Numbered from the stretch's first letter, positions 1-42,915 are shown. The stretch is DNA of 64,000 bases from Dehalococcoidia bacterium (GCA_965116015.1 OZ220477.1:781704-845703), one strand, 5' to 3'. Program-made: numbers and translations. The notes: generated from the sequence alone by a model not told the origin.

Positions 1-1373
1 CCCGCCGTGCTCTCCGGCCCAACAATATCCGTCTCGATTGCCGGATCCAGCTCCGAGAACCCAAGCCGGTTCACCAGCTCGTCCCGGATGCGAGGCTCCC
101 GAAGCGTCAAATGATAGGTATGCAGAACCGCCGCCTTGCTTCCGACTCTCCGACCATCACTTTCGCCGTTCTCGCCATCCTTGCCGTCCTTCATCGCCTT
201 GCTTTCGCCGTCCTTCATCACCTGCAAAGCGTTCCCCAACAACCGAAGCGTCCCCCGCACGCGCTGGAAATTACGATTCGCCGCAAGATGCCCCGTAATA
301 ACGCGAAGAAGCCGCGGATGAAACGGATACGCATCCTCAAAGTCCTTGTAGCCCAAACCGCTAGCCGCCCGCCCATTCCGGCCGGCGACCTCCGCATAAG
401 CCTTGGCGGCCTCAACCCGCGCCGCTTCATCCACGCTTTTGAACAGCCGCCTCCGCAGAATCTCAGGCAGATCCTCACTCTCCGACGGCGCCAGCGGATG
501 CATCACTCGCGCAAGCTGCGAGTTGATCCTCTCCAGCATCTCAAGCAGCCTCACCGCATCCGCATGCATCGCATCAACGTTCGCCGCATCCGCGCGCATC
601 GCGCCGGCGCCCTCCGCGCCGCTAAGCAATCCGTGAGCCTCCTCCGGCGTCGTAATCACCAGCACAGCCCGCGGACTATCAATAACCGCCTTCGCCAGCG
701 CGCTAAGCGTAGTAAGAACCCCATCCGCGCTTATCTTGCCAGCAACGACCAGCTGATCCACACGGTTGATGTACTGAACAAGCTCATCGATAACAATCAC
801 CACCGGCTCATCCCCGATCAGCCGCCGGAACGCCTCAGCCCCCGGGTCCCCAAAAAGCTCGTCGCCCTCTGCAAACTCCCCCAACGCCTCAGCCCCCCCA
901 AGCTGATGCAGAAGGTGCCCCGCCAGACTCCGCGCCCGGCTCCCGTCGTCCATCCGCACCCCGCCAATGCCATAGTCGATGCCATCGAACGCGACAACCC
1001 TCGCCGCCCCCACCCCAACCCTCTCGCCGTCGTGCCCAAAGCCCTCCCAATAGGGAAGGCCGGGATGCTTCGCCGCCGCCGCAAGCAACAGCAAACTATG
1101 CGTCTTCCCGCCCCCATACCGGCTATTCAGCTGATACACCGCCGGACTCGTGCTCTCGCGCCCCCTAACAACGCGATCCATCGCCATACGCACAAAGTCC
1201 GACATCGCCTTCGTCACATACGTCGCCTCCAGAAACTCCGCCGCCGACTCCGCAGTCGCAAGCTCCTTCCCCAGACCCCCGATCAAACTCGCCGCATACT
1301 GATCCCCCGCCTGCTCGATCTCCCGCGGCGGGCACGCCTCCAGCAATGGCCTCAGCTCCATCGTCTCCGTCAT
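1..1373 (-). CDS. DUF499-type P-loop ATPase (BrxC/PglY-like), N-terminal ~457 codons; gene continues beyond left window edge
   Basis: Absent from the ORF track because there is no stop inside the window. Hand translation of the minus strand from ATG at 1373-1371 reads MTETMELRPLLEA...AVYQLNSRYGGGKTHSLLLLAAAAKH (Walker A) ...DAYPFHPRLLRVITGHLAANRNFQRVRGTLRLL, with no stop down to position 1. Confidence 0.6.
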   Translation of the reverse strand, partial: MTETMELRPLLEACPPREIEQAGDQYAASLIGGLGKELATAESAAEFLEATYVTKAMSDFVRMAMDRVVRGRESTSPAVYQLNSRYGGGKTHSLLLLAAAAKHPGLPYWEGFGHDGERVGVGAARVVAFDGIDYGIGGVRMDDGSRARSLAGHLLHQLGGAEALGEFAEGDELFGDPGAEAFRRLIGDEPVVIVIDELVQYINRVDQLVVAGKISADGVLTTLSALAKAVIDSPRAVLVITTPEEAHGLLSGAEGAGAMRADAANVDAMHADAVRLLEMLERINSQLARVMHPLAPSESEDLPEILRRRLFKSVDEAARVEAAKAYAEVAGRNGRAASGLGYKDFEDAYPFHPRLLRVITGHLAANRNFQRVRGTLRLLGNALQVMKDGESKAMKDGKDGENGESDGRRVGSKAAVLHTYHLTLREPRIRDELVNRLGFSELDPAIETDIVGPESTA

Positions 1374-1567
1374 CCCAAAACTCCACTCTCCGAAAATTGC
1401 CCGCCGCCGCCCCCCCCTCGCCAGCGCCGGCGCCGCTCCGCCTACCCTACAGCAACGCCCGCTTTTGCCCAACACCCCCCCCCCCCCCCGCCTTGCACCC
1501 AACCCACCCCCACCCCCTCGCGGCGCTACAATCCCCGCACACCCCCCGAACACAGGAGGTCGCCCCT

Positions 1568-2869
1568 ATGCTCACCGTCCACGAAAACGAAAAACTCTCC
1601 CGCGTCGGCCCCGGAACCCCCATGGGCGAACTCATGCGACGCTACTGGCACCCCATCGCCGCCGCCGCCGAACTCAACGACAAGCCAACCAAGCCCGTCC
1701 GACTCCTCGGCGAAGACCTCGTCCTCTACAAAGACAACTCCGGAACCCTCGGACTCATCGACCGCTTCTGCCCTCACCGCCGCGTCGACCTCTCCTACGG
1801 CATCCCCGAATCCAGCGGCCTCCGCTGTATGTACCACGGCTGGATGATGAACGAAACCGGCCAATGCATCGAACAACCCTTCGAAGAAACCGTCCGCCCC
1901 GACGGACGCTTCAAGGAAAAAGTCAAAGTCCCCGCATACCCCGTCCAGCAACTCGCCGGAATGATCTTCGCCTACCTCGGACCCCAACCCGCCCCCCTCC
2001 TCCCCAACTGGGAACCCTTCACCTGGCAAGACGGCTGGAGCGAAATCGCCATCGCCCAACTCCCCTGCAACTGGCTCCAATGCATGGAAAACTCCCTCGA
2101 CCCAGTACACCTCGAATGGCTCCACGGATACTGGGGCGTCCGCCAGCAACACAACAAAGCCGTCCGCCTCGGCCTCGCCAAACCCGACGAATTCGGCATC
2201 ATCCCCAAACGCCACCAGAAAATCGGCTTCGACATCTTCGACTACGGCATCGTCAAACGACGCATCACCGAAGGCATCGACGAATCCCACGGCGACTGGG
2301 CCATCGGACACCCAGTCCTCTTCCCCCAGATCCTCTTCGTCGGCTCCTCCGTCCGATGCTCAATGCAATTCCGAACCCCCATCGACGACGAAAACACCCT
2401 CCACATCACCTGGTATTTCTACCGCGCCGCCCCCGGCCAATCCGTCCAGCCCCAGCAAACCACCCCCTACTTCAACGTCCCCCTCTACGACTCCGACGGA
2501 CGCCTAATCGAAGACCTCGTCAACCACCAGGACTTCGTCGCCTGGATCACCCAAGGCCCCATCGCCCCTCGACACCGCGAGAAACTCGGCGAATCCGACC
2601 GCGGCGTCATCCTCTACCGCAAACTCCTCGCCGAACAGATAACCATCGTCGCCGACGGAGGCGACCCCCTCGGCACAGTGCGCGACCCCGAAATCAACAA
2701 CTGCATCCAGCTCCCCCTCGAACGCTGGCCCTCTATGAACAACCCCGCCCGAATGGCCCAGTTCGTCCCCGCCCAGGCCGGCCAGAGCGAAACCCACATC
2801 AAACAGATCGAAGAATTCCTCAAACCCTGGGCCGAAGCCCCGCCCTGGGAAACCGCCCCAACCCCCTAA
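1568..2869 (+). CDS. Rieske [2Fe-2S] ring-hydroxylating oxygenase, alpha-subunit-like
   Basis: Internal ATG at 1568 of ORF 1346..2869, preceded by AGGAGG. Rieske motif CPHRRVDLSYG...CMYHGW and a mononuclear iron motif ENSLDPVHLEWLH. Confidence 0.85.
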   Translation: MLTVHENEKLSRVGPGTPMGELMRRYWHPIAAAAELNDKPTKPVRLLGEDLVLYKDNSGTLGLIDRFCPHRRVDLSYGIPESSGLRCMYHGWMMNETGQCIEQPFEETVRPDGRFKEKVKVPAYPVQQLAGMIFAYLGPQPAPLLPNWEPFTWQDGWSEIAIAQLPCNWLQCMENSLDPVHLEWLHGYWGVRQQHNKAVRLGLAKPDEFGIIPKRHQKIGFDIFDYGIVKRRITEGIDESHGDWAIGHPVLFPQILFVGSSVRCSMQFRTPIDDENTLHITWYFYRAAPGQSVQPQQTTPYFNVPLYDSDGRLIEDLVNHQDFVAWITQGPIAPRHREKLGESDRGVILYRKLLAEQITIVADGGDPLGTVRDPEINNCIQLPLERWPSMNNPARMAQFVPAQAGQSETHIKQIEEFLKPWAEAPPWETAPTP

Positions 2870-3081
2870 CGCCCTCCCAAAAGCCACAGGCCCCCTCGCC
2901 CCACAAAAGCGCCCACGCAAGGGCAGGGACCCGCCAGCGCCGCCAACCGGAGCGCACAGCCTCGCCCCCTCATTGCCCCACCGCCGCCCGCAAGGGTAGG
3001 GGCGCCCCAACCAGAAGCCCTCGAAATCGAGAACCCCCTGGCGCGGACAACAACCCCCCGCCGCCCCCAACCGGAGCCCCT

Positions 3082-5274: not shown

Positions 5275-5375
5275 CCAATTCGAATATAGTTACACCATCG
5301 AACACGGTCAAGCGCGCCCAGTCGCGCCCTCGCCGCAAACAACCAACCTCCCCCTACGCAAAAAAGGACGCCCTA

Positions 5376-6158: not shown

Positions 6159-6437
6159 CAATCCCCCAACGATCCCAGCCCCGACCCCCTCACGACTCGC
6201 GAACGACCCGCAAGCCCCGCAACCCCAACGACTCCCTCCAGCGCCCTGCGCGAAACCCGTCGGCGCCCTGCGCAAGACCCCGTCCCCAACCCGCAACCGC
6301 CCGCCTCGCCGCACATCGCCCCCCATCCCTCACCCCGCCAACGCTCCTGAACCAGCCCCAACGGACACAACTCCACAACTCCAACAAACCAAGTTCAAGA
6401 ACTCCCCCGCCACACGCCCCCAAGCGCCCGAACAACC

Positions 6438-8142: not shown

Positions 8143-8171
8143 CCCAAAACGCCAGCGCGGCGCCAAACGAA

Positions 8172-9312: not shown

Positions 9313-10440
9313 ATGCAGATCAAGTGCCTCCAGGAGAATCTCAGCCACGGCCTCGGCGTCGTCCAGCGAGCCGTCGCCACCCGCACAACACTCCCCATCA
9401 CACAGCACGTCCTCCTCTCCACCGACGAAGGACGCCTCAAACTCTCCGCCACCAACCTCGACATCGCCATCAGCACATGGATCGGCGGCGAAATATCCTC
9501 CGAAGGCTCCGTAACCGCCCTCGCGCGAACCCTCATCGACCTCGTCAACTCCCTCGGACCCCAAACCATCGACCTCGCCTCCAACTCCCAGGAACGCGGC
9601 GTCGAAATCAAAGGCAACCGCTCCCAACACTCCATCAACGGCGCCAGCGCCAGCGAATTCCCACCCATGCCCGCCATCGGCGACGGATCCACAACCCGCA
9701 TCAACGGATACCAACTCCGCGACGCCATACACCAAGTCGCCTTCGCCGCCGCCGTCGAAGACTCCAGACCCGTCCTCACAGGCGTCAACGTCGAACTCGA
9801 AGGATCCCAGATCACCCTCGCCGCCGCCGACGGCTTCCGCCTCGCCGTACGATCCGCCAAACTCCTCGACCCCGTCGACGAGAAACTCTCCGTCATCATC
9901 CCCGCAAGAGCCCTCGCCGAAATCGAACGCCTAATCGACAGCGACGACCCCATCGACATCGTCATCAACACACAGCGAAGCCAGATCCTCTTCCGCCTCA
10001 AAAACATCGAATTCGTCTCCCAACTCATCCAGGGAACCTTCCCCAACTACAGCCAACTCATCCCCCACGAACGAACCACACGCGCAGTCGTCGACCTCGG
10101 CGAACTCAAACGCTCCTCTCGAACCGCCGCCATCTTCGCCAAAGACGGCTCCGGCATCATCCGACTCCTCATCGACTCCGAATCAGGCGACTCCGGCAAA
10201 CTCACCATCTCCTCGCGCGCCGACGAAATCGGCGACAGCGTCGGCGACATCGAAGCCGACATCGAAGGCCCCGTCGGCAAAATCGCCTTCAACAGCCGCT
10301 TCCTCAACGACGTCCTCGCCGTCATCGCCAAAGACAAAGTCGCCCTCGAAATGACAACCTCCTCAAGCCCAGGCGTCATACGACCCCTCGACGACCCCGA
10401 CTACGTCCACGTCGTAATGCCAATGTTCGTCCAGTGGTAA
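9313..10440 (+). CDS. dnaN: DNA polymerase III beta sliding clamp
   Basis: 375 aa: MQIKCLQENLSHGLGVVQRAV...LTGVNVELEG..ITLAAADGFRLAV...FPNYSQLIP...PGVIRP. GAGG RBS. Confidence 0.92.
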   Translation: MQIKCLQENLSHGLGVVQRAVATRTTLPITQHVLLSTDEGRLKLSATNLDIAISTWIGGEISSEGSVTALARTLIDLVNSLGPQTIDLASNSQERGVEIKGNRSQHSINGASASEFPPMPAIGDGSTTRINGYQLRDAIHQVAFAAAVEDSRPVLTGVNVELEGSQITLAAADGFRLAVRSAKLLDPVDEKLSVIIPARALAEIERLIDSDDPIDIVINTQRSQILFRLKNIEFVSQLIQGTFPNYSQLIPHERTTRAVVDLGELKRSSRTAAIFAKDGSGIIRLLIDSESGDSGKLTISSRADEIGDSVGDIEADIEGPVGKIAFNSRFLNDVLAVIAKDKVALEMTTSSSPGVIRPLDDPDYVHVVMPMFVQW

Positions 10441-10529: not shown

Positions 10530-10709
10530 ACCGATGCTCCTCCACTAATAACCCAAACTCCCAACCCAATCCCACAACCCCCCACAACCCCCCCAACCCA
10601 GCGCCCACCCCGCACCGATGCTCCTTCGCTAGCAAACCCAAACTCCCAACCCAATCCCACAACCCCCCACAACCCCCCCAACCCCCACCCACCCAGCGCC
10701 CACCCCGCG
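10530..10709. repeat. Intergenic tandem repeat, 2 copies of ~84-95 bp
   Basis: ACCGATGCTCC...AAACTCCCAACCCAATCCCACAACCCCCCACAACCCCCCC occurs at 10530 and again at 10614. Confidence 0.8.
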
Positions 10710-11160: not shown

Positions 11161-11255
11161 CCCAAGCCCGCAACCCCGACTCCCCACCCCATCCCCAAGC
11201 CCCCCGACTCCCCACCCCCACGCGCAACCCACCCCGTAGCGTGCAACCTCCCCCC

Positions 11256-11950
11256 GTGACCCTCCCCCCAGCGCCCAACCCCGCCCCTCCCCGAACCGAC
11301 CACGCGCCGGCGCCCCCTCCTGCCGCTCCTCCTCCAGCTCCACCTACCCTCCATCGTCCTCGGATTCGGAATGGGCGCCACGATCCCCGTCGTCCCCGAA
11401 TTCGCCAAATCCTTCGGCGTTGTGGTATCTATCATTCGATTCAGAAATCCGAATTCACGCCGAGCCGGAGTGTTTGGCGATGACTTACAAGGGGTAGTAG
11501 GGAATGGGCAAGTCGGGTTGGCTCTTTGTGGGGCTTTTTACGGGATTGCTCGTCGGGGCTATATGGGCAAGCAGCTTTAGCATTATCGGGGCGGTTCGGG
11601 GGGTCATCGGTTATGTGGTCGCTATCATCGTAACGGTCTCCGATTGGATGTTCTTCTTTGGCATTTTATGGTTCGTCGCAGTTGTTATTCCAATGGCTGC
11701 AGTAACTCTCTCGGTTATGTTGGGGCAGAATCTGCTAAGGCGCTGGCGTGGGCGCGGAGCGGAGCCAGGGCGTGGGAAAGGGGCGTAGAGGGCGGTCTAG
11801 GTCGAGGGCTGAGGGTTGTGGGACGGGCGGGGATGCTAGAGGGGCATTCCCATCCTTTTCACCCTCGCCCTCAGCGCCATCGGAACCGCCGGAATACTCT
11901 CCTCCCTCATCCTCGCCGCCCTCGTCCCCGAAACCAACCGCCCACACAAA
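11256..11950 (+). pseudogene. Disrupted tandem paralog of the downstream MFS gene (5' and 3' remnants only)
   Basis: 11256-11420 is homologous to 12010-12175 (GTGACCCTCCCCCCA...GGATTCGGAATGGGCGCCAC.ATCCCCGTCGTCCCCGAATTCGCCAAATCCTTCGGCGT) and carries an internal frameshift. 11858-11945 is homologous to 13171-13262. The middle is replaced by unrelated DNA. Confidence 0.8.
11504..11788 (+). CDS. Small hydrophobic protein (94 aa, ~3 TM) inside the skew-inverted insert
   Basis: Sequence MGKSGWLFVGLFTGLLVGAIWASSFSIIGAV...WFVAVVIPMAAVTLSVMLG. It is the only sizeable ORF in the 437-bp insert and has no recognisable family. Confidence 0.4.
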   Translation: MGKSGWLFVGLFTGLLVGAIWASSFSIIGAVRGVIGYVVAIIVTVSDWMFFFGILWFVAVVIPMAAVTLSVMLGQNLLRRWRGRGAEPGRGKGA

Positions 11951-11956
11951 CCCCCA

Positions 11957-17200: not shown

Positions 17201-17557
17201 CTAGTTCCCCCAATGCTCATAAACCCGGCGCAACTCCTCCGCGTAGAACGCAGCAGCATCAGCATCGGTCGTTCCGCTGTACCGCCCCAGTTTCTTCGCC
17301 AGCCTGAAGAACCCTCCGCCAGGTTTGCCTCTGCGTTCCGAGATTACTACGACGGACAGCATCGTCCCCCCCTCACCCCTGCAGATGCGCTCCAGCAGAG
17401 GGTCAAGTCCCAGGGAACCTATCCCCAAACGCCTCGCGATATCCCCGTAGTAGATGGTGCCGCGTCGCTTAGCCTTTTCGATTAGCACGTCTCGAACAGC
17501 GTCGAACAGCTCCTCCCCGAGATTACTAAGCCTCTCCATCAGACTATCCCTCATCAC
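17201..17557 (-). CDS. Stand-alone paralog of the N-terminal module of the 15180..17117 protein
   Basis: 118 aa, about 50% identical by eye: ...YYGDIARRLGIGSLG..LLERICR...MLSVVVISERRGKPGGGFFRLAKKLGRYSGTTDADAAAFYAEELRRVYEHWG versus ...NYGGVAPQVGMTARG...MLSAVVVAKGKGRPSKEFFELARALRGYSGTTPAEDAAFYEEELRRVYAYWG. Confidence 0.65.
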   Translation of the reverse strand: MMRDSLMERLSNLGEELFDAVRDVLIEKAKRRGTIYYGDIARRLGIGSLGLDPLLERICRGEGGTMLSVVVISERRGKPGGGFFRLAKKLGRYSGTTDADAAAFYAEELRRVYEHWGN

Positions 17558-18146: not shown

Positions 18147-19201
18147 GTGCCCCCAATGCTAGTAATCGACGCCGACTGCCACGTCATCGAAAACGACCAA
18201 ACCTGGGAATACCTCGACCCCCAAGACGCCCACTTCAAACCACAACCCGTCGACAACCCCGACCGGCCTATGTGGATCATCGACGGACGCGCCCGCCAGC
18301 GACCCTTCGGCACAACCCCCACCGGAGCCCCCTCCGAACAACTCTCCGGCTTCTCCCGAACCTCCTTCCAAACCCGTTCCCTCTCCGACATCGACGCCCG
18401 CCTCGCCCATATGGACGAACTCAACGTCGACATCCAAGTCCTCTACCCCACCATCTACCTCACACGCATCACCGAACGACCCGAAGTCGAACTCGCCCTC
18501 GCTAAAAGCTACAACCGATGGATGGCCGACGTTTGGGCCCAGAGCAAAGGACGCCTCCGATGGGTCGCCGTCCCGCCCCTCGACTCCATCAACCAAACCC
18601 CAGCCATCCTCCGCCACGCCAAAAACAACGGCGCCGTCGGCGTCTTCATGCGCGGATTCGAAGGCCCCCGACGCCTCACCGACACCTACTTCGACCCACT
18701 CTACAACGCCGCCCTCGAATACGACCTCCCCATCGCCATCCACGCCGGATGCGGAAACCCCGCCTTCGCCCAACTCGCCGACGGCGACGCCTACGCCCGC
18801 AACAAACTCCCCGTCATCAGCGCCTTCCACTCCCTCATCTTCAACCGAACACCCCAACGCTTCCCGGACTCCGCTTCGCATTCGTCGAAGTCGCCGCCAA
18901 CTGGATCCCCTACATCCTCAACGACCTCCACCGACGCGTCCAACGCGAAGGATGGACCCTCCCCAACAACGTCCTCGCCGAAAACCAAATGTACGTCGCC
19001 TGCCAAACCAACGACGACATCCCCTACATCCTCCAGCGCGCCTCCGAAGACCACCTCATGATCGGCTCCGACTACGGCCACTCCGACACATCAAGCGAAC
19101 TCGAAGCCCTCAGATCCCTCAGAACCAGTGGACGCCTCGAACCCCGCATCGTCGACAAAATCCTCTCCCACAACCCCGCCCAACTCTACGCCATCAACTA
19201 G
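18147..19201 (+). pseudogene. Amidohydrolase-2 family gene with a 1-nt frameshift (or assembly error)
   Basis: ORFs 18147..19061 and 18518..19201 are N- and C-terminal halves of one protein. The join is at ...IFNRTPQRFP / GLRFAFVEVAANWIPY, and one base is missing at CCGG around 18864-18867. Confidence 0.7.
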
Positions 19202-19312
19202 CCCCCCCCCCCCGCCAGCTATCCCCCCTTCGGGAAAAGCGAACAGAACGGGAACAGAACGGGTGGGGCGCCCCCCTAGACCCCCGCCCCAGCGCCCCAA
19301 CCCCCACTCCCC

Positions 19313-19774
19313 CTAAAGCCGCCCCTCGGCGCGCGCGATCGGACGCGCATCCTCAAAGCGCGGAGCCGCCACCCCCAAACGCTGCAACAGCGTATAGTCG
19401 TCCCGATCCCCCCACTGCTCCACGATAACCCCATTCGCCAGCCGGTAAATCTCTATCCGGCGCCACCACGACAGATTCGTCCGCGGCGAATGACCATTGA
19501 ACGTCCCCTGAAACCCCCCATTGAACGACACGCTCGCCACAACCTTGTCCCCCGAAGCAATCAGATCATCGATAGTAACCCGGATCCCCGGAAACGCCGT
19601 CCGCGTCATCACAGCAAGCTCCTTCACCGGCTGCGGACCGAACGGATCCTCCGGTATCCCCGCGATATGCAACTCAACATCCCGCGCGTACGCCTCATCG
19701 ACAAACCCCGCATCCCCCTCGTTGTACACCCGCTCATACAACCGCCGGATCGCCGCCTTGTTCGCCTCCGACAT
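19313..19774 (-). CDS. SnoaL-like / ester cyclase family protein
   Basis: Internal start MSEANKAAIRRLYERVYNEGD with GGAGG RBS. The longer ORF extension looks spurious. Confidence 0.65.
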   Translation of the reverse strand: MSEANKAAIRRLYERVYNEGDAGFVDEAYARDVELHIAGIPEDPFGPQPVKELAVMTRTAFPGIRVTIDDLIASGDKVVASVSFNGGFQGTFNGHSPRTNLSWWRRIEIYRLANGVIVEQWGDRDDYTLLQRLGVAAPRFEDARPIARAEGRL

Positions 19775-19922
19775 CCCGCCCCCTCCCTCCGCCTGCGCTA
19801 CTCCCGCATTCTTTGCGTCCGCGTCCCCAACGTCAAGTGCGCCGCCCGGCCCCGCCCTGTATAGTTGCCCCATCTCGCAGAGAAGACAAAGAAGACTGAA
19901 GACTACAGAAAAGAGGTGCGCA

Positions 19923-25684: not shown

Positions 25685-26281
25685 TCATCGCGCCCCTCGC
25701 GACAGCGCAAGCCCCGCCGCCTCGATCCCCCACGCGTCCCACCCCTCGCAGCTCGACCTAGCGAACAGCTCGATCTTCCGCTGCGCAGGAAACATCAGCC
25801 CGATCCTCCGCCGAACCTCCTCCGGCTTCGCCGAATGCGCCCCCCGCCGAGCGCTCACCAACTGACGAACATCCCGCCTCCCCCGCGGCCGCGGAATCCG
25901 CCCACGCTTGAACACAAGACACAACTCGCACTGACTCAGCGTATAGAACCCCGGATTCACCCGCTGCTTGTCCCACACGAACGCCACCGTCGCCCACCCG
26001 AACCCCCACGCCTTCCCCAGCTCGATAGCCTGATCAAGATGCGGATTCGTCGCCCACAGAAACAGCACGCTATCGTCCGCAGCGATCCCTCCCACATCCA
26101 GCCGCTTCAAACCCTCCAGCGTAACCGTCGGATAATGCCGCGCAGCCCCGCCCGTATCCCCGCTCCCCGGCCCCGAATGCTGTAGCTGACCCTTATAGTC
26201 CCACGGCGGATCAGCGTAGATGACATCGTACCGGCCATCCGGAAGCCCCGGAAACTCCCCGTTCGAAAGCAACTCCGCCAA
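25685..26281 (-). CDS. MT-A70-family N6-adenine methyltransferase
   Basis: 198 aa with catalytic DPPW in VIYADPPWDY. Also FLWATN and SAKPEE motifs. Confidence 0.8.
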   Translation of the reverse strand: MAELLSNGEFPGLPDGRYDVIYADPPWDYKGQLQHSGPGSGDTGGAARHYPTVTLEGLKRLDVGGIAADDSVLFLWATNPHLDQAIELGKAWGFGWATVAFVWDKQRVNPGFYTLSQCELCLVFKRGRIPRPRGRRDVRQLVSARRGAHSAKPEEVRRRIGLMFPAQRKIELFARSSCEGWDAWGIEAAGLALSRGAR

Positions 26282-28010: not shown

Positions 28011-28395
28011 GCGCAGAGTAGGGTAGCCCCGACGCACACCGGCCTCGACACTCCAGGCAGCCCCAACCCCCCGCAGAGTAGGGCAGAACGCCCTGCAAGC
28101 CCCCGAATCCCCAGCCAACCCCCCAGCGTGCGCAGGGGAGGGGTAGAACGCCCCGCAAACCCCGCGAACCTCCACGCCAACCCCCAGCCCCCGCGCAGGG
28201 TAGAGGTGTGCGCCTGAACTGGGAGCCGCCAGCAGCGCCCAACCTCAGCGCGCAGGGTAGGGCGGAACGCACTGCAAACCCCCAGCGTCCCAAGCCAACC
28301 CCAGCGCCGGGGTAGGGCAGAACGCCCTGCAAGCCCCCGAATCCCCAAGCCAACCCCCAGCGCACGCAGGGCAGGAGTAGAACCCCCAACAGCCG
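28011..28395. repeat. Tandem array, ~7 copies of a 57-63-bp unit carrying a GCAGGGTAGGGCAGAACGCCCTGC hairpin
   Basis: Units start near 28011, 28071, 28129, 28192, 28250, 28307 and 28364. The best-conserved units are 28071 and 28307. Confidence 0.85.
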
Positions 28396-29636: not shown

Positions 29637-30437
29637 ATGACCGAACTCGCCGAACGCCTCGACCTCGCCATCCGCCTCGTCCGCGAAGCAGGACAACTCG
29701 CCATCTCCTACTACCAGCGCCAGAACATCGGACTCAACTTCAAACCCGACCGCTCACCCGTAACCCGCGCCGACACCGAAGCCGAACAACTCATGCGACG
29801 CATCCTCGACTCCGAATGCCCCCGCGACGAAATCTCCGGCGAAGAACTCCCCCTCAAACAAGGCTCCTCCGGATACCGCTGGCTCCTCGACCCCATCGAC
29901 GGCACCGAATCCTTCATCCGGGGCGTACCCCTTTTTGGCGTAATGACAGCCCTCGAGCACAAGACAGAACCCATCGCCGGCGCCATCTGCTTCCCCGCCC
30001 TCGGCGAAATCATCTACGCCGCCAAAAACCACGGCGCCTGGTGGGCAACCGCAATCGGCAAACCCCAAAACCCCCTCCAACCCCAACCCGCCCGCGTCTC
30101 CTCCGTCTCCCAACTCTCAAACGCCACACTCCTCTCCACCGCATTCCACCACTTCGCAACCATCCGCAAAGCCCGCGCCCTCCCCAAACTCCTCTCATCC
30201 GTCGCAAACGCCCGCGGATGGTCCGACTGCTACGGACACTACCTCGTCGCCACCGGACGCGCCGACATCATGATCGACCCCCTCATGAAAATCTGGGACA
30301 ACGCCCCCCTCCTCCCCATCATCGAAGAAGCCGGCGGACGCTTCTCCTCACTCGACGGCCAGCGCTCCATCCGAGCCCCCAACGCCCTCTCCACCAACGG
30401 ACTCCTCCACAACGCCGTCCTCGACGCCCTCCAATAG
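29637..30437 (+). CDS. Inositol monophosphatase family (HisN-like) phosphatase
   Basis: EEL..., WLLDPIDGTESFIRG and the WDNAPLLPIIEEAGG motif. Confidence 0.85.
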   Translation: MTELAERLDLAIRLVREAGQLAISYYQRQNIGLNFKPDRSPVTRADTEAEQLMRRILDSECPRDEISGEELPLKQGSSGYRWLLDPIDGTESFIRGVPLFGVMTALEHKTEPIAGAICFPALGEIIYAAKNHGAWWATAIGKPQNPLQPQPARVSSVSQLSNATLLSTAFHHFATIRKARALPKLLSSVANARGWSDCYGHYLVATGRADIMIDPLMKIWDNAPLLPIIEEAGGRFSSLDGQRSIRAPNALSTNGLLHNAVLDALQ

Positions 30438-30757
30438 AGCGCCCCGACCCCGCCCCAGCCGGAGCTCCCCAACAGCGAACCCATCGCCCGCCCCCCTAAC
30501 GCACGACGGCCAGCCCCCCCAGCCGCTCCCCCAACCCCTCCCCCCAACGGACTCCTCCACAACCCCGTCCTCGACGCCCTCCAATAGAGCGCCCCGACCC
30601 CGCCCCAGCCGGAGCTCCCCAACAGCGAACCCGTCGCCCGCCCCCCTAACGCACGACGGCCAGCCCCTCCCCCAGCCGCTCCCCCAACGCCCTCTCCACC
30701 GACGGACTCCTCCACAACCCCGTCCTCGACGCCCTCCAATAGAGCGCCCCGACTCAG
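30376..30757. repeat. Tandem ~150-155-bp repeat (2.4 copies) that includes the last ~60 nt and stop codon of the IMPase gene
   Basis: AACGGACTCCTCCACAAC.CCGTCCTCGACGCCCTCCAATAGAGCGCCCCGAC starts at 30396, 30546 and 30701. Confidence 0.85.
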
Positions 30758-30928
30758 CCCTCCAACCCCCAGCCCCTCACGCCAGCCCGCCGCCCGATTG
30801 GCAACCTGCCGCCCCTACGCCTGAAGTGCCCCCACCACCACCGTGCCGTGCCCCGCCAACCCTCCGCCCAATTACAGCCCACCGTCCCCCCGCGCCAGAC
30901 CCCCACCCCACCCCGCGCCCACCCCGCG

Positions 30929-32745: not shown

Positions 32746-32785
32746 CAAGCGGGTGCCCATTTTTGAATGTCCAAGGAGAAGAGGA

Positions 32786-33238
32786 ATGATGCGCGCCGTC
32801 GCCAGTCTGCTAACGATTGCCAGCGCGCTAGCGTTGGCAGCTGCCTGCGGAGGCGATGACATCGCTGTGGCCTCCAACGCGCTGGATTGCAGGACAATGG
32901 AATGGTCACCGGATGAGTATTCCCGATACCGATTGGAGTACCGAGGGTTCATCCTCTGGCATGGCTCCCTTGAATGGGATGCCCCTTGGGCCATGGTAGG
33001 CGCATCCCCATACTTTGCGGACTTCCTTTCCGCTAGAGACACCAATTTAATGACACCCTTTCCAGACTCCGGACTCACTTCCCCGCATACTGCTAAAAAC
33101 TGGGCATGCGCAACAGCGGACAAGATTGCTCGTGCTTGTAGTCACCTAAAGACTGATCATCGGTGGCCTTGGTGGGAAAAACGGTCAAAGCTCTATGTCT
33201 ACTGTGCATCCGATATTACAGACAATCACCCTTCGTAG
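32786..33238 (+). CDS. Lipoprotein, family unknown, in a compositionally foreign patch
   Basis: MMRAVASLLTIASALALAAACGG lipobox with AAGGAGAAGAGG RBS. Codon usage lacks the local C/A bias. Confidence 0.6.
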   Translation: MMRAVASLLTIASALALAAACGGDDIAVASNALDCRTMEWSPDEYSRYRLEYRGFILWHGSLEWDAPWAMVGASPYFADFLSARDTNLMTPFPDSGLTSPHTAKNWACATADKIARACSHLKTDHRWPWWEKRSKLYVYCASDITDNHPS

Positions 33239-33771: not shown

Positions 33772-34853
33772 CTAAACCCGAGGATCCCCCCTGAACGCCA
33801 GATAGTGATTCCCCTTCGACACCGCACCCAAACCCGTCACCGCCCGCGACCACGACTCCCCACCATCCTCCGACCACAACACATCCCCGTCCGACGTCGC
33901 AGCTAGCGCCTGAACGCCGCCCCCCGACTCCTCCAGCGTCATCGCCTCCACGCTCGCCGTAAGATCCCCCTCCAACCCAGCCCCCCTCAGCCTCTCCCAC
34001 GTCTCTCCCCCGTCCCGGCTCCGCGAGATCCGCGTCGACGCCGTCCCATCACGATGCCAACTCCCCGGACTCTTCTGCCCAGCCGTAACCAACATATACC
34101 ACGGATCGCTCGGCTTATACACCAACTGATCCGGATACCCCCCAAACTCGCTCCCCCGCCCGAACACATTCACCCACGTAACCCCATCATCCCGCGACAT
34201 CCACAAACCCTCGCCACCCGTCACAAACATCCGCCCCGGATCCAACGGATTCGACACCAACCGATGCACATCGTTGTACATCCCCGAATCTCCGTAAACG
34301 TATCCCCCCCATCCGTCGACCGGTACAACCCCCCCTGCTCGATGCTCGCATACACCGTAGACGCATCCCCCGGACGAAAACTAATATGCTTCAGATGCGC
34401 AACATGCGGCGGCGCAGGAAACCGCCACGCGCTCGTCTCCTGAGCCCCCAGCGCCGGCTTCTCACTCCACGTCCCTCCCAGATCATCGCTCACGAACAAC
34501 CGCGCCGGCTCCGTCCCCGCAAACAACCGCGTCCTCCCCCCAACCTCCGCCGTCGACAAACTATAAACGTTCCGCTCCGTAAGACCCTCGTCCCGCCTCT
34601 CCCAACTCCGCCCATCATCCTCGCTCGCATACACCCCCCCGTACTGAACCCCGCAGAACCACATCCCGCTCCGCGGATCCTGAACCAGCGCATGGATATG
34701 CCTTCCCTCCAGCGTCCGCTCCACAGCCGACCATCCCCCCGCATCGCGCACGATCCGCACAACCCCATCGACCGTCCCCACCAGCGCCTCCACGCTCAGC
34801 GACGACGACACAACCACATTCGACCCTCCCCCATGTGAAACCCCAATAGTCAT
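33772..34853 (-). pseudogene. BNR/beta-propeller paralog with a 1-nt frameshift (or assembly error)
   Basis: ORFs 34221..34853 and 33772..34281 join as ...DGGDTFTEIRG / MYNDVHRLV, colinear with DGGETWREAREGIHPDIHGL of the 19923 paralog. One base is missing in a C4 run at 34282-34285. Confidence 0.65.
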
Positions 34854-34937: not shown

Positions 34938-35720
34938 TCAGGACGGAGAACTCCGAAAGCAATCGAGGCAGCGGGGCCTTTTCATGCTCGTCTTCCGCTC
35001 CTTGCCGCACGAGTGGCAATACTTCTCCTCATAGTCGTAATTCTGGTACTCGTTCCACGTCTTGTAGTGCTCCAGGCAATAAGGCCTATCCGGATTGAGA
35101 GCAAGATCTCGCCTGCACCGAATGCAGTACCCGCCCGTGCTCGCCGGCGCTCTAGGCGCGCTCCTCCTCGACCTCGCCGCAGGCGCCCGCTCGGAAGCAG
35201 CCGGGCGAGCCGCCGACTTCGCAGGAGCAGGGGAGACAGCAGCCCCCGACCGCTCAGCGCGCTCCCGAAGCCTCTCGACATAGCGGTCCAATTCCCTGTA
35301 GAGCTCCCCATGCTGCGCCTTCTCAACCCGAACCCCAAGCTCCCGGGCGTTATTGAAGGACGACTCAAGCAGATTCATCGAAGTCGCCAGCGCCGTCGAT
35401 TCATTCATATAAATCTTGGCGTGGAGCCACTTAACCGGATAAACAGTCGCCCCCTCGCCCTTCAGCCACGCCACGCCCTCATCCTGCGTCTTCTCGGCGC
35501 GATAGAAAATCTCAAATCGCAGCCCCTTCCGATTCAGAGCATCTCCGAGGAGCCTCGCCAGGTGCTCGTGATGCTTGTTATATGGAGACACCAGGTAAAG
35601 ACGCTCCTTCGCCTCCTTGATAACGTCATACACAGCCTGCTGCACATCCTCATCGAACAAGAACTGCGGCGGCCGACCCTCATCCCCAACGCTGGATGCA
35701 GACTTCCTGAAAGGAACCAA
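34938..35720 (-). CDS. PLD-superfamily (single HKD, Nuc-like) nuclease with C-terminal zinc-ribbon region
   Basis: HKD-like WLHAKIYMNESTALATSMN. C-terminus CIRCRR...CLEH...CHSCG...CLDC. Probable TTG start at 35720, 5 nt after AGGAGG (the ORF track starts at 35780). Ordinary, unskewed codon usage. Confidence 0.65.
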   Translation of the reverse strand: MVPFRKSASSVGDEGRPPQFLFDEDVQQAVYDVIKEAKERLYLVSPYNKHHEHLARLLGDALNRKGLRFEIFYRAEKTQDEGVAWLKGEGATVYPVKWLHAKIYMNESTALATSMNLLESSFNNARELGVRVEKAQHGELYRELDRYVERLRERAERSGAAVSPAPAKSAARPAASERAPAARSRRSAPRAPASTGGYCIRCRRDLALNPDRPYCLEHYKTWNEYQNYDYEEKYCHSCGKERKTSMKRPRCLDCFRSSPS

Positions 35721-35809
35721 AGCTCGCCTCCTATGCCTCTGCTTGACCGTATCCCCTCGCCCCCGCCCACCTCCCCCCAACAGGGGAGGAGGGCAGGGCG
35801 CCCCCCAAC

Positions 35810-38698: not shown

Positions 38699-38734
38699 GC
38701 CGCAACCCCCGATTCACGAGTGGAATGACACACT

Positions 38735-39169: not shown

Positions 39170-39259
39170 ACCCAACCTCCCGCCCCTCCAAACGCCCCCA
39201 CACCTCTACCTCCTCCCCGCAACAACCCAAACAACCCAGCTCCGAAAGGCGACCCCCCT

Positions 39260-39568: not shown

Positions 39569-39683
39569 CAACCAACTCCCATCCCCCAAACAAACCCCCG
39601 CCCAACCCCCCAAACCCCAACGACTACCCCCACAAACCAAACCCGCTATCATCCCTCCCGGCGCACAGCCAGGAGAACCACCA

Positions 39684-40643
39684 ATGACCAACACCCTCTT
39701 CAGCCTCGGCGGAAGCTCAGGCCTCGAATGGGCCGACTTCCTCCAAATATGCCAAACCTGCGACCAGCTCGGCTTCCACGCCTTCTACCCCTCCGACCAC
39801 CTTATGCAGATCCACCCCGGACGCGGCGCAACCCCCGCCCGCCTCGACGGCCTCACCGCTATGGCCGCAATCGCCGGTCACACCAAAAACCTCCGCCTCG
39901 GAATGCTCGTCATCAACAACAACCTCCGACACCCCGTCATCACCGCCAAAATCATCAACACCATCGACCACGCATCCAACGGACGCGCAGAAATGGGCAT
40001 CGGCTCAGGAAACGTCAAACACGAATTCGACGTCCACGGAATCCCATTCCCACCCTTCCCCGAACGAACCCAACGCCTCGACGAAGCCCTCTCCGTCATC
40101 AAAGCCATCTGGACCGACGAACCCGCAACCTTCAACGGAACCTACTACAACCTCAACCAAGCCCCCCAAATGCCCAAACCCATCCAAAAACCACACCCCC
40201 CCATCATCGTCGGCGGACGCGGCGACCAAACCCTCCGCATCGCCGCCAAGCACGCCAACGACTACAACCAGATCGCACCCCTCCAAGAAGCCAAAATCAA
40301 CCTCGCCCGTATGCAAACAATCTGCAACGAAACAGGCAAAGACATCTCCGCAATGCGACGCTCCATCCAGATACAGATCAACCTAACCGACGACAAAACC
40401 GCCGTCGAACAAACCATCGCCCGCGGCGCCGCCCTCGCCACCCAGCGCCCCGCCGCCCACTACGCCTCCCCCGAAGACCAGGCCCGCGACAGCATGCTCC
40501 TCGGATCCCCAGCCGAAATCGTCGACCAGCTCGGCCGCTGGACCGAAATCGGCGTCAACCACTTCATCCTCATGACCCCCAGACCATTCAACCCCGCCAT
40601 AATGGAACGCTTCGCCGCCCAAATCGCCCCCCACTTCCCCTAA
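39684..40643 (+). CDS. Luciferase-like monooxygenase (LLM class), paralog of 37375..38352
   Basis: 319 aa with LRLGMLVINNNLRHPVITAK and NGRAEMGIGSG. Colinear with the upstream paralog. Confidence 0.8.
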   Translation: MTNTLFSLGGSSGLEWADFLQICQTCDQLGFHAFYPSDHLMQIHPGRGATPARLDGLTAMAAIAGHTKNLRLGMLVINNNLRHPVITAKIINTIDHASNGRAEMGIGSGNVKHEFDVHGIPFPPFPERTQRLDEALSVIKAIWTDEPATFNGTYYNLNQAPQMPKPIQKPHPPIIVGGRGDQTLRIAAKHANDYNQIAPLQEAKINLARMQTICNETGKDISAMRRSIQIQINLTDDKTAVEQTIARGAALATQRPAAHYASPEDQARDSMLLGSPAEIVDQLGRWTEIGVNHFILMTPRPFNPAIMERFAAQIAPHFP

Positions 40644-41560
40644 CCCAACACCCACCCAACCCCCAGCCCCACAAAGAACGCCCAACCCCACCAACCCAAG
40701 CCCCCCCACCGCCCAAACTACCCCCACTCCCCCCTAACCCAATCCCAACCATCACCCACAGCCGCCGACCCACAAGAACGCCCAACCCCGCCAACCCCAG
40801 CCGCCCCCCAAGAACGCACAGCGCCGCCAACCCCAGCCAGCCCCCGCCCAAATCGCCCCTCACTTCCCCTAACCCCAACCCAACCCCCCAGCCGCCCTCG
40901 CAGAAACCACCCTCGCTCCTCCTCACCCAGCCCCAGCCCCCCAGCCACCGCCCCCACAAGAACGCAGCCACCGCCCAAATCGCCCCCCACTCCCCCTAAC
41001 CCAACACCCACCCAACCCCCAACCCCCAGCCCCACAAAGAACGCCCAACCCCACCAACCCCAGCCCCCCACCGCCCAAACTACCCCCACTCCCCCTAACC
41101 CAATCCCAGCCAACCCCCCAGCCGCCGACCCCACAGGAACGCGCAGCGCCGCCAACCCCAACCCGCCCCCGCAGAAACCAACCCCCCAACCCATACCCAG
41201 CCAGCTCCCCAGCCGCCGACCCCACAGGAACGCGCAGCGCCGCCAACCACCAACCCGCCGCCGCAGAAACCAACCCCCCAACCCAACCCCCAATCCCCCC
41301 AGCCGCCGACCCCACAGAAACGCGCAGCGCCGCCAACCCCAGCCCGCCCCCGCAGAACCACCCCCACAACCCATACCCAGACAGCTCCCCAGCCGCCGAC
41401 CCACAGGAACGCGCAACGCCGCCAACCCCAACCCGCCCCCGAAGAAACCGCCCCCACTTCCCCCAACCCAACCCCGGAGCCCCAGCCGCAGCACCCCCCA
41501 AGTAGAGAGCGCGCAACCCCAAGAGCGCCAAGCCCCCGCCAAACAACCCCGAAGCTCCCC
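40600..41560. repeat. ~940-bp non-coding C-rich satellite: 356-bp duplication including the LLM gene 3' end, plus four ~90-bp units
   Basis: CCGCCCAAATCGCCCC.CACT.CCCCTAACCC at 40615 (gene end), ~40849 and 40971. GCCGCCGACC(C)CACAG.AACGCGCA.CGCCGCCAACC at 41121, 41212, 41302 and 41392. Confidence 0.85.
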
Positions 41561-41578
41561 AGCCCCGAAACAGGAAAC

Positions 41579-42043
41579 CTACTTGCTCAGACCCATCCTC
41601 ACAACAACCTCAAACTCCGCCTCCGTCACCGGCGTTATCGACAACCGATTCCCCCGCCTCAGCACAACCATCTCCCCCAACTCCGGCTCCGACCGCAACT
41701 CATCAGCCGACACAATACCGTTGAACCTCTCATCCGCCCTGATATCCACCATCCACCAGATTGGCTTATCCGGAGTACTCTTCGGATCAGGATGATCCGA
41801 CCCCGGATCCCAAGCCGTGTGATCCGGATACCCCTCCCTCACAACCGTCGCCGTCCCCGCCACCCCGATCGGATTCGCGCTCGAATGCCAGAACAACACC
41901 CTATCCCCCGCCTTAATCGCATCCCGAAGCCAATTCCTCACCCGGAAATTCCGCACCCCGTCCCACTCGGCAACCCCATCCGCAACCAGATCATCATAGG
42001 AGTACGTCCCCGGCTCCGACTTGAACAGCCAGTAACTCGTCAT
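41579..42043 (-). CDS. EVE (PUA-like) domain protein
   Basis: Internal start MTSYWLFKSEPGTYSYDDLVADGVAEWDGVRNFRVRNWLRDAIKAGDRVLFWHS. Confidence 0.8.
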   Translation of the reverse strand: MTSYWLFKSEPGTYSYDDLVADGVAEWDGVRNFRVRNWLRDAIKAGDRVLFWHSSANPIGVAGTATVVREGYPDHTAWDPGSDHPDPKSTPDKPIWWMVDIRADERFNGIVSADELRSEPELGEMVVLRRGNRLSITPVTEAEFEVVVRMGLSK

Positions 42044-42286
42044 TGCCAGCCCTCCCGCAGAGTAGACCGCGAGTATAGCCCACCCCTCCCCGCGCTTGAC
42101 ATTCCCCCTCTCCATAGCCGCTAATGGAATACGGAACAGAGATTACCCAAATGGCCTCGAACACCCTGCGTCCCCCTCAGCCTCCCCCCTCAAACGGCGC
42201 CCCCTCTCGCCGGCGCCTCTCCCAAACCTCCGCCCAAAAGACGCCGCAACCTCCCCCGCTCGGCGCGAGCCAAACGCCATCCCCAT

Positions 42287-42442
42287 CCCCAACCTCCAGC
42301 GAACGTACCCCCTCGCCCAACCACACGCCCCCCTCGCTCAACCCAAGAACGCCCGCAAACCCACCCCCAACCTCCAGCGAACGTACCCCCTCAGCCAACC
42401 ACACGCCCCCCTCGCTCAACCCAAGAACGCCCGCAAACCCCT
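42287..42442. repeat. Tandem repeat, 2 x 78 bp
   Basis: CCCCAACCTCCAGCGAACGTACCCCCTC.GCC.AACCACACGCCCCCCTCGCTCAACCCAAGAACGCCCGCAAACC at 42287 and 42365. Confidence 0.8.
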
Positions 42443-42504
42443 CCTCCCCATCATCGCTCGCGCGAGCATTGCTCGGACTGCGCCCCCTGACCCCGAGCTC
42501 ATGG

Positions 42505-42915
42505 ATGACCCCCCGCGCCAACCCCTCGCGCCCGCCTCGATGGCGTCTCCTCCTCTCCATCGCCCTCGTCTACGCCCTCCTCCTGCCCCTCTACGGCTCC
42601 CTGATCTCCCCCGCATTCATCGAACTCCTCCCCAACCACGCCCACATCCACCCCAGCGGCCACCTCGCCCCGCATCTCCACTCCTACGAAACCCCGCCCG
42701 GCGCCCCCGACGACAGCAGCGGCGTATTCGCCATCCCCCCTGACAACGACGGATCCTCTGCCGGAGGCCTCGCCGCAGCCGCCCTCGCAGCCCTCATCCT
42801 CCTCGCAGCCCCCCCCCTCCTCCGACAAGTCCCCCCCCAGAGCCTCGCGCGGCTCGTCGCCGTAACCCTTCCCACAAGCCCTCCCCCTCCACGACTCGCC
42901 CCCCTCCTCAGCTGA
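42505..42915 (+). CDS. Small membrane protein with His-rich loop (HAHIHPSGHLAPHLH)
   Basis: In-frame ATG at 42505 inside ORF 42124..42915. Two TM segments flank the His cluster. Start and reality are uncertain. Confidence 0.4.
   Translation: MTPRANPSRPPRWRLLLSIALVYALLLPLYGSLISPAFIELLPNHAHIHPSGHLAPHLHSYETPPGAPDDSSGVFAIPPDNDGSSAGGLAAAALAALILLAAPPLLRQVPPQSLARLVAVTLPTSPPPPRLAPLLS

Follow-up and report, generated by a model that had tools for sequence, protein, structure and literature searches.

The DNA analysed here, a window of 64,000 nucleotides from the approximately 2.39-Mb chromosome of a SAR202 (Chloroflexota) bacterium, carries a strand asymmetry of a known kind, probably replication strand bias, at a new record strength. 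The window probably spans one of the two points of the chromosome at which replication reverses its direction with respect to the strands, with a replication-linked mutation bias to the left of this point.

A strong and persistent depletion of G and T in the plus strand over the first 43 kb had been noticed in a first-pass annotation of the sequence, and this was borne out by the counts. In the region 1-42,900 the GC content is 64.3%, the GC skew is -0.393 and the AT skew is +0.229. The GC skew ranges from -0.28 to -0.54 in 2-kb windows, and all 168 windows of 1 kb were negative (median -0.40, range -0.62 to -0.13; 90% below -0.3). Measured against the binomial SD of a 1-kb window under G = C (0.039), the typical window is about 10 SD off parity. 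Expressed as (G-C)/N, the value for the block is 0.25 compared with the 0.025 typical in SkewDB, a magnitude far beyond ordinary replication skew, as had been claimed. The intergenic DNA of the block has skews between -0.16 and -0.63, which are milder on average, and includes stretches almost devoid of G and T, for example at 40.6-41.5 kb.

Codon-position counts were based on about 45 Pfam-validated genes located on both strands. Plus-strand genes carry C or A at 91% of the third positions, whereas minus-strand genes carry G or T at 85%. At four-fold degenerate sites the base frequencies are A.158, C.793, G.028 and T.021 in plus-strand genes (n = 2038) and, read on the sense strand, G.729, T.181, C.056 and A.034 in minus-strand genes (n = 2804). 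With the plus strand as reference, these correspond to GC skews of -0.93 and -0.86, respectively. Because the two classes of genes are nearly identical at four-fold sites on the plus strand, the bias tracks the DNA strand, independent of transcription; when it is split into a strand-linked (S) and a sense-linked (T) component, S = -0.91 and T = -0.02. The earlier proposal that third-position bias is set by the strand was thus confirmed, and neither a failure of the skew to stay persistently below about -0.3 nor third positions following gene orientation was found. The bias is mutational: it peaks at synonymous, neutral sites and is much weaker at positions 1 and 2. On the sense strand of plus-strand genes, the GC skew goes from +0.04 and -0.25 at the first and second positions to -0.82 at the third, and to -0.93 at four-fold sites.

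The saturated part of the block forms a plateau (1-42,100), C/A-rich in the plus and G/T-rich in the minus strand, which extends past the left end of the window. The end point of about 42,900 given previously was about right, as the plateau stops between 42.1 and 42.9 kb. Four-fold GC skew lies between -0.70 and -1.00 in 29 of the 31 validated plateau genes, irrespective of the strand, and keeps a level of about -0.9 all the way between 1.5 and 42 kb, with no positional gradient. Saturation could mask any such gradient. The gene for the beta clamp, dnaN (9313-10,440, plus strand), whose product is 78% identical to SAR202/Dehalococcoidia DnaN, has a four-fold GC skew of -0.98; it lies on the C-rich strand, and the plateau edge is about 33 kb away. 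The two exceptions among the 31 genes are both on the minus strand: the DUF499/HmaC-like ATPase gene (3-1565; -0.68), which is milder than its neighbours, and the PLD/DrmC-like defence gene (34,938-35,780; -0.44), a low-skew island that is probably a younger resident. A lipoprotein-like ORF (32,753-33,238, plus strand) is another low-skew island, with sense four-fold frequencies of A.29, C.33, G.20 and T.18. Weaker skew in accessory and defence genes is what would be expected of younger residents under a pressure acting in situ. The segment at 11.5-11.9 kb, where plain skew has the opposite sign, was considered as an inverted fossil and rejected: its four-fold sites are just mildly G/T-rich, and the hydrophobic protein that it encodes explains most of the effect. 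At the plateau edge there is an array of about nine degenerate, C/A-rich repeats of about 90 nt (40,630-41,560, plus strand); the kilobase at this place (40.5-41.5 kb) is the most skewed of the window (-0.62), and the matching spacer in the closest relative, OZ241740.1, is only 155 bp long.

To the right of the plateau lies a graded transition zone (42,100-50,600), consisting of a four-gene plus-strand cluster followed by the minus-strand phoU-pstBACS operon. Here the four-fold skew declines gene by gene and without a step, from -0.83 (EVE gene) through -0.63, -0.53, -0.39, -0.46 and -0.35 to -0.19 (pstC), and between 50.6 and 64 kb it is about 0 to +0.1. One gene, pstS (49,092-50,099, minus strand), stands out as an island of plateau-type composition within the zone: its four-fold skew is -0.82, as opposed to -0.19 in pstC and +0.04 in the DUF3105 gene. 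The orthologous pstS genes of OZ241740.1 and OZ252088.1 have values of -0.57 and +0.78, and the three genes encode proteins with 81-82% amino acid identity. The pstS gene, which is probably highly expressed, is alone in hinting at a transcription-linked effect. Alignments of the pstC-pstS spacer and of the spacer upstream of pstS revealed just a hairpin and Pho-box-like repeats.

The right flank (50,600-64,000; modABC, uvrC, a gene for an xerC/D-type recombinase, lgt and a GMC oxidoreductase gene) is nearly symmetric (S = +0.09), with A and T equally raised on both strands, and the GC content is equal on the two sides of the boundary. At two-fold sites of the flank the plus-strand odds are 0.40 for A:G and 0.32 for T:C, about twice the values in relatives, and they match the 0.34 predicted if each strand were exposed for half of the time. 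The right flank thus looks like DNA whose two strands each take the exposed role about half the time.

OZ241740.1 (locus L165) is collinear with the window between dnaN (1.520 Mb) and uvrC (1.575 Mb), and thus syntenic across the boundary. Along this stretch its four-fold skew starts at -0.6/-0.7, passes zero at orf500-pstC and reaches values between +0.25 and +0.56, the gene-by-gene gradient of the transition zone recurring at the same genes, and its transition factor flips from 4.7 to 0.7. As the four-fold skew of this sister changes sign at the same genes, the boundary is probably a replication skew switch. The sign reversal is clear in the sister, whereas the far side of the window reaches only S = +0.09 within 14 kb. 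Among the causes suggested previously, replication-linked asymmetry is therefore the best supported. Strand-linked skew at this locus is graded among relatives, with S values of -0.16, -0.28, -0.36, about -0.4 and -0.49 compared with -0.91 in the window; at about 60 other Dehalococcoidia dnaN loci |S| does not exceed 0.15. The relatives also have a sense-linked preference for codons ending in C (T about -0.1 to -0.2). A scan of metagenomes with orf546 yielded only relatives of at most 49% identity, none with strong skew. A patch of +0.36 in locus L001 was discarded as an instance of the same phenomenon, being an inserted RepA/AAA-like element.

The mutation spectrum was deduced from two-fold degenerate sites, where only transitions are synonymous. 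The plus-strand A:G odds are 2.07 in the block as opposed to 0.40 in the right flank, and the T:C odds 0.029 as opposed to 0.32. The resulting transition asymmetry factor is 72-80 in the block, 3.3 in the sister OZ241740.1, and 0.9 and 1.1 in two further relatives. These values uphold the earlier claim of C>T plus A>G change on the minus strand. The spectrum had been described as that of single-strand deamination, which fits the transitions, but transitions do not suffice to make the neutral sites of the plus strand 80% pyrimidine; G>C transversions on this strand are asymmetric as well. Changes polarised to the window lineage at codon positions 1 and 2 of the plus strand were 51 G>A against 23 A>G, 42 G>C against 6 C>G, and 33 T>C against 23 C>T. 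The G>C component is already present in relatives that lack the transition asymmetry. No strong preference for the 5' or 3' flanking base was found among 110 C>N and 33 A>G minus-strand events. Comparison of partial, pseudogene-like duplicates with their parent genes as a probe of the neutral spectrum gave differences too few and noisy to be informative.

The bias pushes amino acid usage in opposite directions in genes of the two strands. The ratio of PTHQNK to GVWCF residues is 1.25-1.48 in plus-strand genes and 0.65-0.68 in minus-strand genes; the relatives have a ratio of about 0.87, and the right flank has 0.93-0.95. Inside the block the protein branch of the window lineage is about twice as long as that of the sister, and in the phoU-pstS segment about equal. 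The opposite shifts and the doubled branch agree with the suggested long-term mutation pressure; the companion statement that the proteins remain intact does not hold for the BNR gene, which is frameshifted, nor for phoB, which is truncated.

The following scheme would account for these observations. To the left of the switch one strand would always have the same role in replication, and a replication-linked mutation bias would have brought those of its sites that are free of constraint close to fixation. The bias is separable into a clade-wide G:C<->C:G transversion asymmetry, which underlies four-fold GC skews of -0.16 to -0.5 in relatives, and a lineage-specific excess of the minus-strand transitions C>T and A>G, estimated at about 13-fold and 6-fold over the complementary changes. 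Together these components lead to neutral sites with C near 0.8, A near 0.16 and G plus T near 0.05, and to the opposite shifts in amino acid usage of plus- and minus-strand genes. Replication would be the process that defines the exposed strand, and the amplification may come from the loss of an Ung- or EndoV-type repair of deaminated bases or from a lagging-strand template that stays single-stranded much longer. A bolder version, which we regard as doubtful, is that the lineage changed the way its chromosome is copied or repaired, so that one parental strand is single-stranded and unprotected far longer than in any bacterium studied, either by a mitochondrion-like uncoupled strand displacement or by total loss of the repair of deaminated C and A. 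If true, no known cellular chromosome would be more strand-asymmetric, and its genes would specify two proteomes that differ in amino acid composition according to the coding strand.

Several observations could also be read in terms of a regional process, in which the minus strand is repeatedly single-stranded while the DNA is mobilised or copied leftward, with a fixed nick or start near 42-43 kb as the point of departure. This could occur in Hfr-like transfer by conjugation, in synthesis by rolling circle or strand displacement, or through a long transcript that runs leftward and forms R-loops. The strongest skew adjoins a sharp right edge, the window has no strong arm of opposite sign, the minus strand read 5'->3' leads leftward from that edge, and its very high G content makes it prone to R-loops and G-quadruplexes. 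Such a process is nevertheless unlikely: the arm of opposite sign does exist at the syntenic place in the sister, the sign of the skew at the dnaN locus is common to all relatives, the plateau shows no decay over 42 kb, and the right flank bears the same process symmetrically. Moreover, there is no plasmid similarity, and no relaxase, type IV secretion or replication-initiator gene among the approximately 55 ORFs scanned. A genomic island or integrated conjugative element finds no support: the block is syntenic with relatives, no relaxase or replication gene was found, and the sole integrase-family gene (xerC/D-like) is located in the unskewed flank. Mosaic origin, by horizontal transfer, a large recombination import or chimeric assembly of parts from different genomes, could be suspected from the abrupt change of composition and from the deviation of pstS and several accessory genes from their neighbours. 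It is highly improbable in view of the unchanged GC content, the gene order, which two complete relatives share across the boundary, and the gradient repeated gene by gene in the sister. One and the same genome is closest to both parts at similar divergence (UvrC 85%, DnaN 78%, SDR 90%).

A spectrum in which one strand undergoes C>T, C>G and A>G and the restriction of the effect to the window lineage are features that would also be produced by enzyme-driven hypermutation, i.e. by a strand-specific deaminase acting on cytosine and/or adenine in DNA, or a toxin, comparable to strand-coordinated APOBEC clusters. We consider this very unlikely, since the mutated sites have no flanking-base motif, the boundary coincides with a conserved skew switch, and the uniform equilibrium composition over 30 genes, with positions 1 and 2 filtered by selection, speaks for a lasting pressure and against an episode. 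An origin in selection or transcription (by codon preference, purine loading or transcription-coupled repair) could be invoked for pstS, with its strong bias of its own, and for the C-ending preference of the relatives. It was ruled out as the cause of the block by third positions that follow the DNA strand and not gene orientation: plus and minus genes use opposite codons, and intergenic DNA has the same sign of skew. A sequencing artefact, bisulfite-like or by deamination, would not have left GC content unchanged, spared codon positions 1 and 2 or kept the proteins recognisable by Pfam, and these last two readings are scarcely credible.

Replication-linked bias next to a skew switch thus being the preferred reading, it may be asked what kind of switch this is. 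Neither the window nor the loci L165, L166 and L163 yielded a cluster of DnaA boxes, an AT-rich unwinding element or a dif-like site, a weak negative since the motifs came from other phyla. Of the possible markers of fork polarity, none (dnaA, rRNA, EF-Tu, rpsL, groEL, gyrB, recF) was present in the loci analysed from the strongly skewed relatives. The clues to polarity at the switch disagree: the conventional rule of a G/T-rich leading strand implies diverging forks, and the run of minus-strand genes at the right with plus-strand dnaN at the left fits converging forks. The skew changes sharply at one side of the transition and gradually at the other, a shape not predicted by a simple origin; the switch lacks an origin signature, and a one-sided fork barrier would be expected to have such sides. 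If the switch is a terminus, the leading strand is C/A-rich here, the opposite of a near-universal bacterial rule.

Strand asymmetry normally amounts to a few per cent, and deamination of single-stranded DNA, polymerase asymmetry and repair are still under debate as its causes. The effect described here has about ten times the usual size, in a GC-rich and probably sponge-associated bacterium. The window genome and its sister, with about 80-90% protein identity and a far smaller transition asymmetry, constitute a natural experiment, and the repair and replication gene sets of the pair could reveal what normally keeps replication asymmetry small. Mutation bias alone can split codon and amino acid usage between the strands of one chromosome and can double the rate of protein change. 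In such genomes gene finding based on codon usage, binning, detection of horizontal transfer and phylogeny are affected.

A literature search found no report of such a phenomenon, but several known systems share part of its features. Deaminase clusters (APOBEC kataegis, bacterial deaminase toxins) likewise involve C>T and C>G on one strand and long single-stranded tracts, but here there is no context motif, and the composition is an equilibrium under selection instead of an episodic cluster. In mutation-accumulation lines of mismatch-repair-deficient E. coli mutL, both transitions are reportedly commoner, about 2-3-fold, when C or A is on the lagging-strand template; one repair loss could similarly amplify an existing replication asymmetry, although the factor here is about 80-fold. 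In animal mtDNA, where replication by strand displacement leaves the displaced strand open to deamination, one of the heavy and light strands likewise undergoes C>T and A>G and the other is A/C-rich and G/T-poor, with comparable or lower four-fold skew and the same effect on protein composition; the present case differs in being a 2.4-Mb bacterial chromosome, with a 42-kb plateau lacking mtDNA's gradient with single-strandedness time, and in the extra G>C transversion component. The strongest published skews are those of Borreliaceae, with an overall GC skew of about 0.2, and of some obligate intracellular bacteria. Borreliaceae have been described as clear skew outliers among bacteria, and an example given in SkewDB has a (G-C)/N of 0.046; strong bias normally accompanies low GC, and the phylum of this organism averages a low bias (0.025). 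Bacterial replication asymmetry (GC/TA skew, chirochores) resembles our case in being strand-linked, independent of orientation and strongest at synonymous sites, with separate codon and amino acid usage for each strand and joint enrichment of G and T on one strand; its switch of sign at a fixed chromosomal point has a clear counterpart in the sister. What sets the window apart from it is the magnitude (0.25, with a four-fold GC skew of about 0.9), a GC-rich host from a low-bias phylum, and a far side of the switch that is nearly symmetric for at least 14 kb.

The G+C content of the window is 64%. Its plus strand has a GC skew of -0.393 and an AT skew of +0.229 over positions 1-42,900, and the GC skew is -0.12 over 42,901-55,000 and +0.006 over 55,001-64,000. 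When the first 43 kb were divided into 2-kb windows, the GC skew lay between -0.28 and -0.54, and all of 168 overlapping 1-kb windows were negative (median -0.40, 90% below -0.3; the sampling standard deviation of a 1-kb window with G equal to C is 0.039). The peak kilobase (-0.62, 40.5-41.5 kb) adjoins the edge of the block.

About 45 genes, located on both strands, were validated by Pfam. The plus-strand genes include dnaN and those for a Rieske oxygenase, an isochorismatase, two MFS transporters, an enoyl-CoA hydratase, a cytochrome c, glyoxalases, an inositol monophosphatase-family protein and two luciferase-like monooxygenases. On the minus strand are genes for DUF499, DUF6391, SDR, asparaginase-like, DUF1801, SnoaL, MT-A70, EutA-like, GFO/IDH/MocA, PLD and EVE proteins, a binding protein and an MFS transporter. 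Third positions of the plus-strand genes of the block were C.725, A.185, G.074 and T.016, and those of the minus-strand genes, read on the sense strand, were G.618, T.235, C.116 and A.032. Referred to the plus strand, the four-fold GC skew was -0.93 in plus and -0.86 in minus genes, and it was between -0.70 and -1.00 in 29 of the 31 block genes. The sense GC skew of plus and minus genes was +0.04 and +0.32 at position 1, and -0.25 and +0.02 at position 2. Artefact and codon preference are ruled out as causes, since genes of both orientations share the strand-referenced skew, and positions 1 and 2 are milder. The proteins of the block are also affected, though far less than neutral sites; the composition of the block reflects mutation pressure filtered by selection. 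Thus, the extent and strength of the asymmetry described in the first-pass annotation, its dependence on the DNA strand and not on transcription, and its attribution to long-term mutation pressure are all borne out.

At two-fold degenerate sites transitions are the sole synonymous changes. The plus-strand odds at these sites were 2.07 for A:G and 0.029 for T:C in the block, and 0.40 and 0.32, respectively, in the right flank (50.6-64 kb). The factor of transition asymmetry between the strands was 72-80 in the block, 3.3 for the same genes in OZ241740.1, the sister chromosome, and 0.9-1.1 in two further relatives. In the window's lineage alone, the minus strand shows a very strong preference for C>T and A>G over the complementary changes. 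The bases next to the mutated sites revealed no motif. Changes at positions 1 and 2, polarised using three relatives, comprised G>A 51 versus A>G 23, T>C 33 versus C>T 23, and G>C 42 versus C>G 6. The deamination spectrum earlier proposed for the minus strand is therefore present in the transitions, but it is incomplete because of the excess of G>C; overall, the observation is confirmed and its original interpretation largely supported. Plus-strand neutral sites in the block are 80% pyrimidine, and in relatives lacking any transition asymmetry the strand-linked component of the four-fold skew (S) is still -0.16 to -0.28, which points to an unusual, clade-wide difference between the strands in G:C<->C:G transversions. 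At the dnaN loci L001, L004 and L002 of relatives, S ranges from -0.16 to -0.5, and transition asymmetry at two-fold sites is slight or absent.

If the baseline odds are taken as 0.17, the odds in the block correspond to a boost on the exposed strand of about 13-fold for C>T and about 6-fold for A>G. If each strand were exposed half of the time, symmetric odds of 0.34 would be predicted, near the two values of the right flank, which are about twice those of the relatives. Thus, the right flank probably does not escape the process, which apparently acts on both its strands, although the uncertain baseline makes this a consistency check and not a proof.

The effect on the proteins was quantified as the ratio of residues with C/A-only codons to those with G/T-only codons (PTHQNK/GVWCF). 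This ratio was 1.25-1.48 for plus-strand and 0.65-0.68 for minus-strand genes of the block, about 0.87 for the orthologues in three relatives (both strands) and 0.93-0.95 in the right flank of the window. For block genes the protein branch of the window was about twice that of OZ241740.1 (ratios 1.2-6.3), and for phoU-pstS the two branches were about equal. The least skewed validated genes of the block, both on the minus strand, encode an HmaC/DUF499-like ATPase (3-1565, four-fold skew -0.68) and a DrmC-like PLD nuclease (34938-35780, -0.44). Together with the genes on the same strand for an MT-A70 type II methyltransferase (25685-26281) and an EVE-domain protein (41579-42115), they make up a scattered set of defence-type genes. 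A methyltransferase-HNH gene inserted in a relative has a skew of -0.09 among neighbours of -0.6 to -0.7. The weaker skew of accessory genes fits younger residents still drifting to the local equilibrium. Two small plateau ORFs, one for a membrane protein of 94 residues (11504-11788) and one for a lipoprotein-like protein (32753-33238), are islands of low or opposite skew; no homologue of the former was found in any fetched relative. In L001 an inserted 535-residue RepA/AAA-like gene (18438-20045; plain GC skew +0.25 to +0.36), not present in the window, looks like a small integrated element.

The block boundary is a skew switch. Across it, the four-fold skew runs from -0.83 (EVE gene) through -0.62 (orf263), -0.63 (orf184), -0.53 (orf546), -0.39 (phoU), -0.46 (pstB), -0.35 (pstA) and -0.19 (pstC) to +0.04 (DUF3105) and +0.01 (orf298 homologue), and stays between -0.06 and +0.26 up to 64 kb; after separation from the sense-linked part, S of the right flank is +0.09. 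At the dnaN locus of OZ241740.1, oriented as in the window, S is -0.49. The genes adjoining the boundary there have skews of -0.61 to -0.73, followed, over the same genes as in the window, by -0.37, -0.16, -0.10, -0.34, -0.19 and +0.07, and the far side climbs to +0.24 (uvrC), +0.3 (cmk-like and rpiB) and, at a distance of about 20 kb, +0.25 to +0.56. The handling of orientation was checked with genes present in two overlapping loci, which gave identical values. The window DnaN is 78% identical to that of metagenome-assembled SAR202/Dehalococcoidia genomes, and many of the relatives derive from sponge metagenomes. OZ241740.1 (2,381,319 bp) is the closest relative of skewed and unskewed parts alike (Rieske 88%, SDR 90%, enoyl-CoA hydratase 83%, DnaN 78%, UvrC 85% identity). 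Because the window shares its gene order across the boundary with both OZ241740.1 and OZ252088.1, a second complete relative, a chimeric junction or a foreign origin of either side is ruled out.

The pstS gene (49092-50099; orthologues at 15076-16047 in L165 and 15053-16021 in L166) is alone in having the composition of the plateau (four-fold skew -0.82, with G.64 and T.23 on the sense strand) among operon neighbours near 0; its skew is -0.57 in OZ241740.1 and opposite in OZ252088.1 (sense C.78). It may reflect the same mutational process acting in a form linked to transcription, opposed by a preference for C-ending codons. At 50170-50460 only the first 97 residues of phoB remain, and there is no phoR, so this genome may regulate its pst operon differently; in OZ241740.1 both genes are intact between pstS and DUF3105. 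A BNR/sortilin-like gene (33772-34853) has a frameshift around 34,278-34,284 that divides it into two overlapping ORFs, whereas each of the two relatives has one undivided gene of 360 residues; the break marks a pseudogene or an indel in the assembly. Degenerate C/A-rich repeat arrays (40630-41560, 10530-10700 and 28057-28387; units of about 90 nt, roughly nine copies) occupy spacers whose counterparts in the sister genome are short, and the 28-kb copies retain a small G-containing hairpin. Degenerate partial copies of gene ends lie beside their parents at 11183-11955 (second MFS transporter), 17205-17371 (asparaginase-like), 30353-30825 (inositol monophosphatase-family, 3' end in triplicate) and 6244-6429 (DUF6391), and local duplication seems frequent in the window. 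A 63-nt unit (21 residues) is repeated three times in perfect tandem (44651-44839) in orf546, a conserved SAR202 protein without Pfam family, whose versions in relatives have about 46 fewer residues. The A+T content of the window peaks in the 100 nt at 54921-55020 (41% G+C), in the divergent modA/orf263 spacer, where a repeated TAGCAGAATG motif may be bound by a regulator.

A sign change at a conserved position is the hallmark of an origin or terminus of replication. The dnaN block of OZ252088.1 is inverted and lies on the other side of the boundary locus, about 108 kb off, with dnaN still on the C-rich strand, as would be expected after an inversion across such a point. In favour of an origin, the leading strand is conventionally the G/T-rich one, so that forks would run leftward through the block; the sense strand of the probably highly transcribed pstS is G/T-rich in the window's lineage, as if the exposed strand turned G/T-rich; and tRNA-Arg is on the minus strand. 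A search of the switch found neither a DnaA-box cluster nor an unwinding element nor a conserved spacer of any size, which speaks for a terminus, as does the profile, sharp at left and gradual at right, as expected where forks are blocked from one side only and meet at varying points. Also in line with a terminus, dnaN is on the plus strand, and 20 of 24 genes right of the switch in the sister genome, tmRNA and smpB among them, are on the minus strand; a search for a dif-like site, however, found none. A terminus would make the leading strand C/A-rich, for which we know of no precedent.

The data are best read as a mutational asymmetry linked to replication, of record strength, seen at its switch point and composed of a lineage-specific deamination-type component on top of a clade-wide transversion component. 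Its proximate cause may be that repair was lost or that DNA stays single-stranded for longer. A single-strand process confined to this region, instead of a chromosome-wide one, appears quite improbable.

Of about 70 Dehalococcoidia loci surveyed automatically, most had |S| ≤ 0.15 and a handful -0.2 to -0.5, and the window had -0.86 to -0.91; none of 80 marine metagenome loci came near this value, and no report of such a case was found in a literature search. Per nucleotide, (G-C)/N of the block is 0.25. In SkewDB about 0.025 is typical and 0.046 is used as an example; Borreliaceae have been described as clear outliers among bacteria for skew, and Chloroflexi as having low mean bias, with bias declining as G+C content rises.
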